A DNA stretch of 64,000 nucleotides. It comes from Escherichia coli (lineage in GTDB: Bacteria; Pseudomonadota; Gammaproteobacteria; Enterobacterales; Enterobacteriaceae). Shown here in pieces: positions 23,016-37,888 of the stretch. The position numbers were made by a program, and so were the translations under genes. The stretch's first letter is position 1, and each line of letters opens with the position of its first letter. The notes beneath the pieces are model-generated. The model worked only from the letters and a program-made list of their open reading frames with translations, did no database searches and was not told the origin of the DNA. The stretch lies in assembly GCF_003334335.1 (NCBI RefSeq), contig NZ_QOWQ01000005.1; one strand, written 5' to 3'.

Positions 23016-24662
23016 TCAGGATTTTTTCTTCTCGCGGCTATGCAGGCCACGTTTTTCCAGACCACGGTAAATCAGCTGCTGCTGAATAATGGTTACCAGG
23101 TTGCTGACGATATAGTACAGCACCAGACCTGACGGGAACCACAGGAAGAACACGGTGAAGATGACCGGCATAAAGGTCATGATCTTCTGCTGCATCGGGT
23201 CGGTCACTGTGGTCGGCGACATCTTCTGAATGAAGAACATCGTTACGCCCATCAGGATCGGCAGGATGTAGTACGGGTCCTGTGCCGACAGGTCGTGGAT
23301 CCACAGTGCAAACGGTGCCTGACGCAGTTCAACGGAACCCATCAGCATGTAGTACAACGCCAGGAAGATTGGCATCTGGATCAGCAGCGGGAAGCAGCCG
23401 CCCAGCGGGTTAACCTTCTCAGCTTTGTACAGCGCCATCATTTCCTGGCTGATACGCTGTTTGTCATCGCCCAGACGCTCACGCATTGCCTGAATCTTCG
23501 GCTGCAACATACGCATCTTCGCCATGGAGGTGTACTGCGCTTTGGTCAGCGGGTACATGATGCCACGAACGATAAAGGTGATGATGATAATGGAGAAGCC
23601 CCAGTTACCCACAAAGCTATGGATCCATTTCAGCAGTTTGAACAGCGGCTGAGAGATGAACCACAACCAACCGTAATCAACGGTCAGATCCAGGTGCGGA
23701 GCAACAGCTGCCATTTTGTCCTGGATTTCCGGGCCAACCCACAGGGTGCTGTTCATCGCGCCAGTCTGACCAGGCTGAACCAGTACCGGCTGAGATTTAT
23801 AGCCGATAGCGGCGATGCCGTTACCCAGATTAGCGGTATAGAAGTTGTTGGTACCGTCGTTATGCGGGATCCACGCCGTCGCGAAATACTGTTGCAGCAT
23901 CGCCACCCAACCACCTTTCGAAGAGATGTTCAGGTTTTCGTTATCGGCAATGGTATCGAACTTGTATTTCTCATACTTCTCGTCAGGCGTGGAGTACGCC
24001 GCGCCACGGAAGGTGTGCAGTGCGAAGTTGCTGCTTCCGGTATCGAGATGCGGTGGCAGAGTGATGGATTGCTTCAACTGACCAAACGAGGAGATTTCCA
24101 GCGGTTTCTCGCCAGCGTTCTGCACGTTGTAGTTGACGTTGACAGCGTAATCACCACGTTTCAGGACAAACGTTTTGGTAAACGTGTTGCCTGCCGCGTC
24201 GGTATACGTCATCGGCACCTGCAGTTCGTTTTGACCTTCAGCCAGCACATAAGCGTCTTTTTCAACGTTATACAGCGGACGCGGGCCGTTAGCCGGGTTA
24301 TCCGGGCCATCACGACCGGTCAGACCGCTCTGTGCCTGATAAATAAACTGCGGTGAAGTTTCCAACAGCTGGAACGGCTGGGTAGAGTTCAGCTCTTTCG
24401 GGTAAGCAGGCAGCAGAGCTTGCTCAACATCACCACCACGGGTGTTGATGGTCAGATCAAGCACGTCGGTCTTAACCGAGATCAGTTTCCCCTGGCCACT
24501 GGCCGGTACGCCCTGGTCGGCGGCGCTACCCGCTGCGGTGGTCGTTGTCTGCGTGGTCTGTTGGGCCTGAGGTTGCGGGTTTTTATCCTGCTCCCAGGCT
24601 TGCCAGATCATGAAAGACACGAACAGCAAAGCGATGACTAAAAGATTGCGTTGCGAATCCAT
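23016..24662 (-). CDS. yidC: Membrane protein insertase YidC (548 aa)
   Basis: N-terminal TM, large periplasmic domain, C-terminal 5-TM core ending in basic tail (…REKKKS). Confidence 0.95.
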
Positions 24663-33643: not shown

Positions 33644-34300
33644 TTATTGGTTTACTGCATATACAACCAGAAATTGCAGCGGTGCAGTAATGATGTCCAG
33701 CGTAACAGTCACTGGCAGTAATGCTGCGGAAACACCATCCGGAATGCCTCTGGGTGAATAGTATTCATAAAATCGCACTTTAAATGGATGGTAGAACGCC
33801 ATCACCTTTGAGTAATCCATGTTTTTATTTTTCTCATGGATTGTGCCTTTTAGGTTTTCCAGTGACCTGGTACAGTGTTGAACACCACAGGCAAAACCAT
33901 AATGCGTTGCCAGTGCCTTTTCTTCTTCGTTATTCCAGTAGTAGTAAAGCGATATTGTGCCGGTAAATTTCTTTTTCCCCGCATTTAAAACAAATCTTGC
34001 GTCATCGGCAACCTGAATATTGTGCCGGTTAAGTGCTGGATCATTGAGCATCTTAACGATGTCATCGGCACCATCAGTGATAAGGTAATCCAGCGATTCC
34101 CCTACAAAAACATAGCCTTTTGTTCCATTACTATCTTTTGCCTGCGATAGCCCAGTGATGGTGTCTGACTGCGATTGATACTTTCCTGAACTACCCTTTG
34201 CGGTATGGGAAACCAGAGCATACGAGATACAGCCTGAAAGCATCAGCGCCAGTGGGAATAAACCGGCAGCCTTAAAAAATCCCTTAAAATTCAACTTCAT
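33644..34300 (-). CDS. yidX: Putative lipoprotein YidX (218 aa from internal ATG)
   Basis: Trimmed to [24 protein letters not shown]… (lipobox LSGC); the upstream extension in the ORF track lacks support. Confidence 0.8.
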
Positions 34301-34437
34301 GATTAATCCTTTAAACGAGTAGCTAAGCCGTTGAAAGCATACTCTTCTTTCCCTCCTGTTTAGCGCCTGATATCCCTTTTCAGATTTCTGCCCGACGCAT
34401 GTCATTTTTTTATGCATTGTTCTTTTTGTGATCTAAA

Positions 34438-34512
34438 TTGTAGTACAACAATATAAGTTTGTACTACATTACACGCACGGCAAACGCGAACGTCATCACG
34501 CTGGTACTACAA
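34438..34512. promoter_or_regulatory. Three GntR/FadR-type operator-like repeats (TTGTA-n-TACAA) in the yidX/dgoR divergent region; probable DgoR operators
   Basis: ttgtagtacaa (34438-34448, perfect palindrome), tttgtactaca (34458-34468), tggtactacaa (34502-34512). Confidence 0.7.
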
Positions 34513-34577
34513 AGTTGCCGCGTTATGCATCGATCGGGGTAAAGTAGAGAAGAACATACAGAGCACAAGGACTCTCC

Positions 34578-35267
34578 ATGACTCTCAATAAAACCGATCG
34601 CATTGTCATTACGCTGGGTAAACAGATCGTTCACGGCAAATACGTGCCAGGCTCGCCGCTTCCGGCTGAGGCGGAACTCTGTGAGGAGTTTGCAACCTCG
34701 CGCAACATCATCCGTGAGGTGTTCCGTTCGCTGATGGCGAAGCGGCTGATTGAAATGAAACGTTATCGCGGGGCGTTTGTGGCACCGCGTAACCAGTGGA
34801 ATTACCTCGACACTGACGTACTGCAATGGGTGCTGGAAAATGACTACGACCCACGGCTTATCAGTGCCATGAGCGAAGTGCGAAATCTGGTGGAACCGGC
34901 GATTGCCCGTTGGGCAGCAGAGCGCGCGACTTCCAGCGATCTGGCGCAGATTGAATCGGCGCTGAACGAGATGATTGCCAACAATCAGGACCGCGAAGCG
35001 TTTAACGAAGCGGATATTCGCTACCACGAGGCGGTGCTGCAGTCGGTGCATAACCCGGTGTTACAGCAACTTAGCATTGCGATCAGTTCGCTGCAGCGGG
35101 CGGTTTTTGAACGAACCTGGATGGGCGATGAGGCCAACATGCCGCAAACGCTCCAGGAACATAAGGCGCTGTTCGATGCGATACGACATCAGGACGGCGA
35201 TGCGGCAGAGCAGGCGGCGCTTACCATGATCGCCAGCTCGACACGAAGGTTAAAGGAAATCACATGA
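34578..35267 (+). CDS. dgoR: GntR/FadR-family repressor DgoR (229 aa)
   Basis: N-terminal winged-HTH GntR domain, FCD C-terminal domain; heads the dgo cluster. Confidence 0.92.
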   Translation: MTLNKTDRIVITLGKQIVHGKYVPGSPLPAEAELCEEFATSRNIIREVFRSLMAKRLIEMKRYRGAFVAPRNQWNYLDTDVLQWVLENDYDPRLISAMSEVRNLVEPAIARWAAERATSSDLAQIESALNEMIANNQDREAFNEADIRYHEAVLQSVHNPVLQQLSIAISSLQRAVFERTWMGDEANMPQTLQEHKALFDAIRHQDGDAAEQAALTMIASSTRRLKEIT

Positions 35268-36142
35268 CAGCTCGCTACATCGCAATTGACTGGGGATCGA
35301 CCAATCTGCGCGCCTGGCTTTATCAGGGCGACCACTGCCTGGAGAGCAGGCAATCAGAAGCAGGCGTCACGCGCCTGAACGGAAAATCTCCGGCTGCGGT
35401 GTTAGCAGAAGTCACGACCGACTGGCGTGAAGAGAAAACGCCAGTGGTAATGGCAGGAATGGTTGGCAGCAACGTCGGCTGGAAAGTTGCACCGTATTTA
35501 TCTGTTCCTGCCTGTTTTTCGTCTATTGGCGAACAATTAACGTCAGTTGGCGACAATATCTGGATTATTCCCGGATTATGTGTCTCTCATGACGATAACC
35601 ACAATGTGATGCGCGGCGAAGAAACACAATTGATCGGCGCGCGAGCTCTGGCTCCTTCCTCTCTTTATGTCATGCCCGGAACCCATTGCAAATGGGTGCA
35701 GGCCGATAGCCAGCAAATCAACGATTTTCGCACCGTGATGACCGGTGAATTACATCATTTACTGTTAAATCACTCATTGATTGGCGCAGGTTTGCCGCCG
35801 CAGGAAAACTCTGCCGATGCCTTCACAGCTGGCCTTGAGCGTGGTCTTAATACGCCCGCCATATTGCCGCAGCTTTTTGAAGTTCGCGCCTCGCATGTGC
35901 TGGGAACACTTCCCCGCGAACAGGTCAGCGAATTTCTCTCTGGTTTGTTGATTGGCGCAGAGGTCGCCAGTATGCGCGACTATGTGGCCCATCAACACGC
36001 CATCACCCTTGTCGCCGGAACATCGCTGACCGCGCGCTACCAGCAAGCCTTTCAGGCGATGGGTTGCGACGTGACGGCGGTGGCGGGCGACACGGCATTT
36101 CAGGCTGGTATAAGGAGCATCGCTCATGCAGTGGCAAACTAA
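35264..36142 (+). CDS. dgoK: 2-dehydro-3-deoxygalactonokinase DgoK (292 aa)
   Basis: Begins MTARYIAIDWGSTNLRAWL…; start overlaps dgoR stop. Confidence 0.92.
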   Translation: MTARYIAIDWGSTNLRAWLYQGDHCLESRQSEAGVTRLNGKSPAAVLAEVTTDWREEKTPVVMAGMVGSNVGWKVAPYLSVPACFSSIGEQLTSVGDNIWIIPGLCVSHDDNHNVMRGEETQLIGARALAPSSLYVMPGTHCKWVQADSQQINDFRTVMTGELHHLLLNHSLIGAGLPPQENSADAFTAGLERGLNTPAILPQLFEVRASHVLGTLPREQVSEFLSGLLIGAEVASMRDYVAHQHAITLVAGTSLTARYQQAFQAMGCDVTAVAGDTAFQAGIRSIAHAVAN

Positions 36143-36743
36143 ACTCCCGCTGATCGCCATTTTGCGCGGTATTACGCCCGACGAGGCGCTGGCGCATGTT
36201 GGCGCGGTGATTGACGCCGGGTTCGACGCGGTTGAAATCCCGCTGAATTCCCCACAATGGGAGCAAAGCATTCCCGCCATCGTTGATGCGTACGGCGACA
36301 AGGCGTTGATTGGCGCAGGTACGGTACTGAAACCTGAACAGGTCGATGCGCTCGCCAGGATGAGCTGTCAGCTCATCGTTACGCCCAATATCCATAGTGA
36401 AGTGATCCGCCGTGCGGTGGGCTACGGCATGACCGTCTGCCCCGGCTGCGCGACGGCGACCGAAGCCTTTACCGCGCTCGAAGCGGGCGCGCAGGCGCTG
36501 AAAATATTTCCGTCATCGGCTTTTGGTCCGCAATACATCAAAGCGTTAAAAGCGGTATTGCCATCGGACATCGCAGTCTTTGCCGTTGGCGGCGTGACGC
36601 CAGAAAACCTGGCGCAGTGGATAGACGCAGGTTGTGCAGGGGCGGGCTTAGGCAGCGATCTCTATCGCGCCGGGCAATCCGTAGAGCGCACCGCGCAGCA
36701 GGCAGCAGCATTTGTTAAGGCGTATCGAGAGGCAGTGCAATGA
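36126..36743 (+). CDS. dgoA: 2-dehydro-3-deoxy-6-phosphogalactonate aldolase DgoA (205 aa)
   Basis: KDPG/KHG aldolase-like TIM-barrel sequence; overlaps dgoK 3' end. Confidence 0.92.
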
Positions 36744-37888
36744 AAATCACCAAAATTACCACGTATCGTTTACCTCCCCGCTGGATGTTCCTGAAAATTG
36801 AAACCGATGAAGGCGTGGTCGGTTGGGGCGAGCCCGTGATCGAAGGCCGCGCCCGTACGGTGGAAGCGGCAGTTCACGAGCTGGGTGACTATTTGATTGG
36901 TCAGGATCCATCGCGCATCAATGACTTATGGCAAGTGATGTATCGCGCCGGATTCTATCGCGGCGGTCCGATCCTGATGAGCGCCATCGCCGGGATTGAC
37001 CAGGCGTTATGGGATATCAAAGGTAAAGTGCTGAATGCGTCGGTCTGGCAACTGATGGGCGGCCTGGTTCGCGACAAAATTAAAGCCTACAGTTGGGTTG
37101 GCGGCGATCGTCCGGCGGATGTTATCGACGGCATTAAAACGCTACGCGAAATCGGCTTCGATACCTTCAAACTGAACGGTTGTGAAGAACTGGGGCTAAT
37201 TGATAACTCCCGCGCGGTAGATGCGGCGGTTAACACCGTGGCACAAATTCGTGAAGCTTTTGGCAATCAGATTGAGTTTGGTCTTGATTTCCACGGTCGC
37301 GTCAGCGCGCCGATGGCGAAAGTGCTGATTAAAGAACTGGAGCCGTATCGCCCGCTGTTTATTGAGGAGCCGGTGCTGGCGGAACAAGCCGAATACTACC
37401 CGAAACTGGCGGCACAAACGCATATTCCACTGGCGGCGGGTGAACGCATGTTCTCACGCTTCGATTTTAAACGCGTGCTGGAGGCAGGTGGTATTTCGAT
37501 TCTGCAACCGGATCTCTCCCACGCGGGCGGTATTACCGAATGCTACAAAATCGCCGGAATGGCAGAAGCCTATGACGTGACCCTTGCGCCGCACTGTCCG
37601 CTCGGACCGATTGCACTGGCGGCTTGCCTGCATATCGACTTTGTTTCCTATAACGCCGTACTTCAGGAACAAAGTATGGGAATTCATTACAACAAAGGCG
37701 CGGAGTTACTCGACTTTGTGAAAAACAAAGAAGACTTCAGCATGGTCGGCGGCTTCTTTAAACCGTTAACGAAACCGGGCTTAGGCGTGGAAATCGACGA
37801 AGCTAAAGTGATTGAGTTCAGTAAAAATGCCCCGGACTGGCGTAATCCGCTCTGGCGTCATGAAGATAACAGCGTAGCAGAGTGGTAA
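36740..37888 (+). CDS. dgoD: D-galactonate dehydratase DgoD (enolase superfamily, 382 aa)
   Basis: [32 protein letters not shown]… mandelate racemase/enolase-type N-terminus. Confidence 0.93.

Follow-up and report, generated by a model that had tools for sequence, protein, structure and literature searches.

The intergenic region between yidX and dgoR most probably controls the E. coli D-galactonate operon, dgoRKADT, and the three related palindromes found in it (S1, S2 and S3) are operators of the first product of this operon, DgoR (probability about 0.9). Two of them, S1 and S2, correspond to IR1 and IR2, the operators already published for DgoR. The finding is already known, two of the sites having been established by experiment and all three predicted by computation; the DgoR circuit, with its two operators, effector and autoregulation, counts among the better studied ones of sugar-acid metabolism in E. 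coli, and its recovery here has little weight as a discovery. In conservation S3 equals the proven operators, and it could refine the quantitative model of the dgo promoter, a promoter used as a 'gold standard' by Sort-Seq and Reg-Seq studies.

The yidX/dgoR locus and its three palindromes

The window (the whole stretch of 64,000 nucleotides that was analysed) corresponds to a K-12-type E. coli chromosome and carries yidX and dgoRKAD(T); at this locus, its sequence shows 100% identity with many E. coli chromosomes, K-12 MG1655 included. The earlier note on this DNA had described a divergent yidX/dgoR arrangement, and this is what was found: yidX lies on the minus strand and is separated from the dgoR ATG (34578, plus strand) by the space 34301-34577. 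A 257-aa yidX reading frame reaching 34417 was rejected as an over-extension, as the annotated gene is 657 nt long and begins at 34300; the intergenic region therefore measures 277 bp and not 160. The features of the locus are the following.

33644..34300, minus strand: yidX, the divergent neighbour (ATG 34300-34298; annotated as 657 nt in E. coli records)
34427..34442, no strand assigned: class II CRP site, TGTGATCTAAATTGTA; its right half coincides with the left arm of S1 (shared TTGTA)
34438-34448: S1, TTGTAGTACAA, perfect 5-bp arms flanking a central G
34459-34469: S2, TTGTACTACAT, one mismatch, at the last base
34465..34470, plus strand: TACATT, -10 of the CRP-dependent, D-galactonate-inducible promoter; overlaps S2
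34502-34512: S3, TGGTACTACAA, one mismatch, at base 2 (G)
34515..34545, plus strand: weak downstream promoter, with putative hexamers TTGCCG (-35-like, 34515-34520) and TAAAGT (-10-like, 34540-34545)
34578..35267, plus strand: dgoR, first gene of the operon, a GntR/FadR-family repressor (reading frame, annotation and domains)
35264..37888, plus strand: dgoK, dgoA and dgoD (reading frames 35264-36142, 36126-36743 and 36740-37888; dgoK by annotation)

Inspection of the sequence confirmed the existence of the three motif copies and the perfect 11-bp palindrome of S1. The earlier note had placed S1 and S3 correctly and S2 one base too low (34458-34468); likewise, its first spacing of about 10 bp stands, whereas the second edge-to-edge gap is 32 bp rather than 33. 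The centres of the palindromes are 21, 43 and 64 bp apart, which corresponds to 2.0, 4.1 and 6.1 helical turns and thus places S1, S2 and S3 on the same face of the helix. For the motif TKGTASTACAW, 0.10 strand-matches are expected in the 64-kb window and 5 were found, a number that none of 100 shuffles reached. With at most one mismatch to TTGTANTACAA, there are 4 sites in 64 kb against 1.39 expected, 3 of which fall within 75 bp of each other in the dgoR upstream region. The probability that a single site with no more than one mismatch, such as S3, occurs in the 108 bp from S2 to the ATG is about 0.002 (scaled from the 1.39 expected). The fourth match (23347-23357, ATGTAGTACAA) was not retained as a part of the system, being inside a 548-aa reading frame and in a number close to the chance level; this frame, on the minus strand, has the size expected for yidC.

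The FadR/GntR-type architecture suggested for the repeats was also recovered, both in the motif, which fits the TKGT-N3-ACMA type of the FadR subfamily, and in the GntR and FCD domains of the regulator. In the subfamily consensus, TKGT and ACMA boxes have their GT and AC 3 nt apart (Suvorova, Korostelev and Gelfand 2015 PLoS One). S1 (TTGT-AGT-ACAA) and S3 (TGGT-ACT-ACAA) fit it fully, and S2 (TTGT-ACT-ACAT) fails at its last base. DgoR has the structure of a cognate GntR/FadR regulator, with an N-terminal GntR winged helix (PF00392, residues 7-68, E 7e-14) and a C-terminal all-helical FCD domain (PF07729, residues 98-218, E 3e-27). The protein is identical to PDB 7c7e, a crystal structure of the DgoR C-terminal domain, and is related to PdhR and NanR. 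According to the published operon structure, dgoK, dgoA and dgoD are structural genes under the same promoter region as dgoR.

S1 and S2 are the DgoR operators IR1 and IR2

The IR1 oligonucleotide given in two studies (CTAAATTGTAGTACAACAATAT; PMC11705089, PMC12288454) is identical, base for base, to positions 34433-34454 of the window. In these studies IR1 is perfect and IR2 carries one mismatch, a 55-nt probe with both repeats is bound in EMSA with a KD of ~0.5 uM, and D-galactonate frees the DNA. Similarly, the repressor region delimited by Sort-Seq at -140..-110 from the dgoR ATG (Belliveau 2018 PNAS) maps to 34438-34468 of the window, that is, to S1 and S2. In DNA-affinity chromatography/mass spectrometry, no transcription factor was more enriched on this DNA than DgoR, and the repressor signal was lost both in a dgoR deletion and in the presence of D-galactonate (Belliveau 2018). 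Altogether, reporter assays, Sort-Seq, DNA-affinity mass spectrometry and EMSA describe an autorepression that is relieved by D-galactonate. The pull-down, the deletion, the EMSA and the identity of the oligonucleotide thus establish autorepression through multiple FadR-type operators. The proposal that DgoR autoregulates the dgo operon through several sites is consequently backed by experiments for S1 and S2, while the third repeat is a computational prediction; EMSA with and without D-galactonate and reporter fusions, which the earlier note had proposed as checks, were already in the literature for these two sites.

The position of the two operators relative to the promoter elements accounts for the repression. 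A CRP site with TGTGA has been reported at -160..-140 from the dgoR ATG, and the wild-type -10 of the inducible promoter, TACATT, between -120 and -100 (Belliveau 2018). In the window, TGTGA occupies 34427-34431 and is 91-100% conserved among the species compared below, and T34470 of TACATT is invariant (79/79 sequences). Within the inducible promoter, S1 overlaps the -35 region, together with the right half of the CRP site, and S2 overlaps the -10, so that bound DgoR shuts out both CRP and RNA polymerase. Binding of DgoR dimers to S1 (IR1) and S2 (IR2) has been shown in the literature, as has the binding of D-galactonate to the C-terminal FCD domain, upon which the DNA is released. As the operon begins with dgoR, DgoR represses its own expression. 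TACATT and the geometry of a class II CRP site (-41.5) would place the inducible transcription start near 34476-34477; the centres of S1, S2 and S3 would therefore be at about -33, -12 and +31. Both S1 and S2 match the DgoR-regulon type TTGTA(G/C)TACA(A/T) and overlap the inducible promoter, whereas S3 departs from this type at base 2 (G) and would lie off this promoter, some 30 bp past the predicted start.

A second RNA polymerase site was detected in glucose at -70..-30 from the ATG (Belliveau 2018), which corresponds to 34508-34548 of the window. Its hexamers may be TTGCCG and TAAAGT, the latter being 96-100% conserved. The centre of S3 would lie near -45 of this downstream promoter and the site adjoins the -35-like TTGCCG. 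A scan for consensus promoters and terminators between 34250 and 34650 found nothing, and the promoter positions given here are therefore based on Belliveau 2018 together with conservation.

Conservation and possible role of the third palindrome, S3

The triple-operator arrangement is already present in the literature as a prediction, since all three sites are listed for E. coli (b4479) as CTAAATTGTAGTACAACAATA, TAAGTTTGTACTACATTACAC and CACGCTGGTACTACAAAGTTG by Suvorova, Korostelev and Gelfand (2015, S1 File). These sequences are exactly S1, S2 and S3, the last one corresponding to the DgoR_ECO entry CACGCTGGTACTACAAAGTTG. The same triple was predicted in E. fergusonii, Enterobacter 638, Cronobacter, Klebsiella, Shigella, Salmonella and Serratia (Suvorova 2015). 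A full-text literature search with the S3 sequence string returned unrelated papers only, the 2015 prediction being in a supplementary table. In the literature covered, no experiment placing DgoR on S3 was found, and Singh et al. 2019 (J Bacteriol) may have tested it. In the 2025 model of the Chaba laboratory, two DgoR dimers occupy two inverted repeats that lie close together (PMC11705089, PMC12288454), derepressing mutations have been described at -140..-110 only (Belliveau 2018), and Reg-Seq names a DgoR 'upstream site' and a DgoR 'right site'.

The evolution of the three sites was studied in one genome per species with DgoR. This provided 80 loci, 78 of them with usable upstream DNA; together with the window, these 78 other enterobacterial species make up a set of 79 sequences. 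All three sites are conserved in position upstream of the orthologous dgoR genes, with the following characteristics.

S1, mismatches to TTGTANTACAA: perfect in 73/79
S2, mismatches to TTGTANTACAA: exactly one in 72/79
S3, mismatches to TTGTANTACAA: one in 67, two in 10, at least three in 2, perfect in 0 (n=79)
TGTGA to S1: 11 bp in 71/79
S1 to S2: 21 bp in 78/79
S2 to S3: 43 bp in 70/79; 42-44 bp in all remaining sequences but one
S3 to the GGTAAAGTA block (downstream -10; start to start): 36 bp in 76/79
GGTAAAGTA block to the ribosome-binding site: variable, 27-32 bp in most
Mean column conservation, sites: S1 0.99, S2 0.94, S3 0.92
Mean column conservation, spacers: S1-S2 0.59, S2-S3 0.51

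S3 therefore appears as a conserved island (0.92 against ~0.5 in the spacers) with at most two mismatches in 77/79 sequences. Its columns G-T-A and C-A-A are 97-100% invariant and the variable columns are positions 2 and 8. In 16 sequences, including E. coli, the left arm is defective at base 2 (T[A/G]GTA…TACAA), and in 61 the right arm is defective at base 8 (TTGTA…T[G/T]CAA); the combination with both arms in their consensus form is absent among the 79 sequences. On a rough dgoR tree, the defect switches sides several times (a parsimony count of 9, best taken as 'several' because the tree was a neighbour-joining one made from 650 nt of dgoR and a few outlier motif calls are shaky). At a shorter evolutionary scale, five E. 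coli variants (four chromosomal strains and one plasmid copy) have substitutions in the spacers and none in S1-S3. The centre of the palindrome is G in S1 (34443; 79/79), C in S2 (34464; 78/79) and C in S3 (34507; 71/79); by this central pair, S1 is thus oriented opposite to the other two sites, an orientation that is conserved across species.

Directly 5' of S3, a T-C-A-C-G-(T) block (34496-34501) is 57-89% conserved, which is above the spacer level, and CACG is also present in all S3 entries consulted in the Suvorova 2015 table. This block may extend the contact of DgoR or belong to another site. Its TCACG (34496-34500) was considered as a CRP half-site and rejected, as its would-be partner, CGCGA, is a poor match and lacks conservation.

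The strength of the E. coli S3 is modest. A weight matrix trained on the S1 and S2 sites of the other species gives it 6.4 bits, the 9th score in the 64-kb window, and some intragenic chance sites outscore it; because of this rank, the case for S3 rests on its positional conservation and not on the strength of its match. One site that scores slightly above S3 with the same matrix, ACGTACTGCAA (34816-34826), is within the dgoR coding sequence. It resembles the S3 type with a defective right arm seen in other species and is probably a coding coincidence.

Several scenarios may explain these observations. A chance origin, in which the repeats would be fortuitous matches of a short AT-rich palindrome in AT-rich intergenic DNA, retains hardly any probability. 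The motif is indeed short, one equally good match occurs inside a gene 11 kb away and several weaker matches score as high as S3. Nevertheless, 5 strand-matches where 0.10 were expected (a number reached in 0/100 shuffles), three sites within 75 bp, the positional conservation of all of them in ~78 species while the spacers diverge, and the direct binding and genetic data published for S1 and S2 exclude this explanation. It also seems improbable that another sugar-acid regulator of the FadR subfamily, recognising a similar TKGT-N3-ACMA box, also binds these sites or is even their main user. The subfamily consensus is generic, its 3-nt spacing being common to ExuR, FadR, GlcC, LldR and PdhR (Suvorova 2015), and the TGGT of the E. 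coli S3 fits this consensus better than the DgoR-specific TTGT. Such cross-talk is nonetheless at odds with DgoR being the most enriched factor on the S1/S2 DNA and with the removal of the repression signal by the dgoR deletion alone (Belliveau 2018), and no data point to another factor.

A less remote alternative, which we still consider doubtful, accepts S1 and S2 as DgoR operators and makes of S3 an element of the downstream promoter (upstream or -35-proximal) or the site of another factor, its likeness to a DgoR site being incidental. This would be congruent with the distance of 36 bp that locks S3 to the downstream -10 block in 76/79 species, with its position against the -35-like hexamer and 3' of the conserved CACG, with the weak matrix score of the E. 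coli site and with the experimental papers describing two sites only. Yet, the invariant columns of S3 are exactly the cores of the DgoR half-sites in an 11-bp palindrome whose central base, C, is also that of S2. Moreover, its defect swaps arms while the other arm stays consensus, which is the behaviour of a palindrome bound by a dimer and not of a promoter element, and the S2-S3 distance is fixed at 43 bp in spite of a spacer sequence that is only ~50% conserved. Judging from its sequence pattern, S3 resembles a dimer-bound palindrome whose strength is held at an intermediate level. We would give about even odds to S3 being a genuine third DgoR operator, kept sub-optimal by selection at a rigid distance from IR2 and from the downstream -10; part of its conservation could be due to the adjacent promoter or to the conserved CACG just upstream.

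If S3 is a true third operator, the accepted model, in which two dimers occupy two repeats, lacks a component. In that case, S3 would be a deliberately weak operator located at about +31 of the inducible start and about -45 of the weak downstream promoter. In the first position, it could assist S1 and S2 in stabilising repression, either through in-phase cooperative or looping contacts or as a roadblock; in the second, it could tune the downstream promoter that would supply the basal level of DgoR. These two roles are not mutually exclusive. Since the downstream promoter is active in glucose, with DgoR bound, S3 is not a strong repressor of this promoter, and its action there might perhaps even be positive, as that of FadR at fabA.

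The closest known system is the E. coli dgo cis-acting element itself, with its IR1 and IR2 (Singh et al. 2019; Belliveau et al. 2018; Arya et al. 2021); S1 and S2 are identical to it and S3 is outside the experimental model. The DgoR sites of Suvorova 2015 are the same triple, as a computational prediction, and come without comment on the spacing or on S3 being always imperfect, both of which are quantified here in 78 species. E. coli FadR, the founding member of the GntR/FadR subfamily, resembles DgoR in being a dimer with an N-terminal winged helix that recognises a TKGT-N3-ACMA inverted repeat, and in releasing DNA when a ligand occupies its C-terminal domain; the effector is acyl-CoA in FadR and D-galactonate with a metal in DgoR. 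FadR usually has a single site per promoter and, as at fabA, is able to activate transcription from a position near -40. The lac O1/O2/O3 and gal OE/OI operators also combine a strong operator over the promoter with weaker in-phase sites nearby, one of them past the start. Nevertheless, lac and gal looping needs tetramers or HU, whereas DgoR is reported as a dimer (PMC11705089, PMC12288454), and the 43-64 bp distances at dgo are short for looping, so this likeness is an analogy only.

The control region among E. coli genomes

The 201-bp control region (34400-34600) was found in 5022 of 5426 complete E. coli genomes and a wider 1.3-kb query matched 5425 of them, which implies that the yidX-dgoR junction is rearranged or deleted in ~7% of the genomes. 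These changes fit reports of dgoR variants selected in the gut, where colonisation has been published to be affected by D-galactonate use and by dgoR variation. In strain ECCTRSRTH03, an IS66-family element (ISEc23, with tnpA, tnpB and the transposase) is inserted at about 34565 of the window, 13 bp before the dgoR ATG (locus L083, 3167-5717). As this element separates an intact promoter/operator region from the start of dgoR, the gene and the rest of the operon are cut off from all three operators in this strain. The dgo control region also occurs in eleven plasmid places in the E. coli collection. On the 71-kb plasmid p24AR0180A (NZ_CP195357.1, locus L082, 6001-6419), the dgo promoter region is present as a copy that retains S1-S3 intact, together with a truncated dgoR pseudogene; this copy is flanked by an IS911 transposase and an IS66 remnant.
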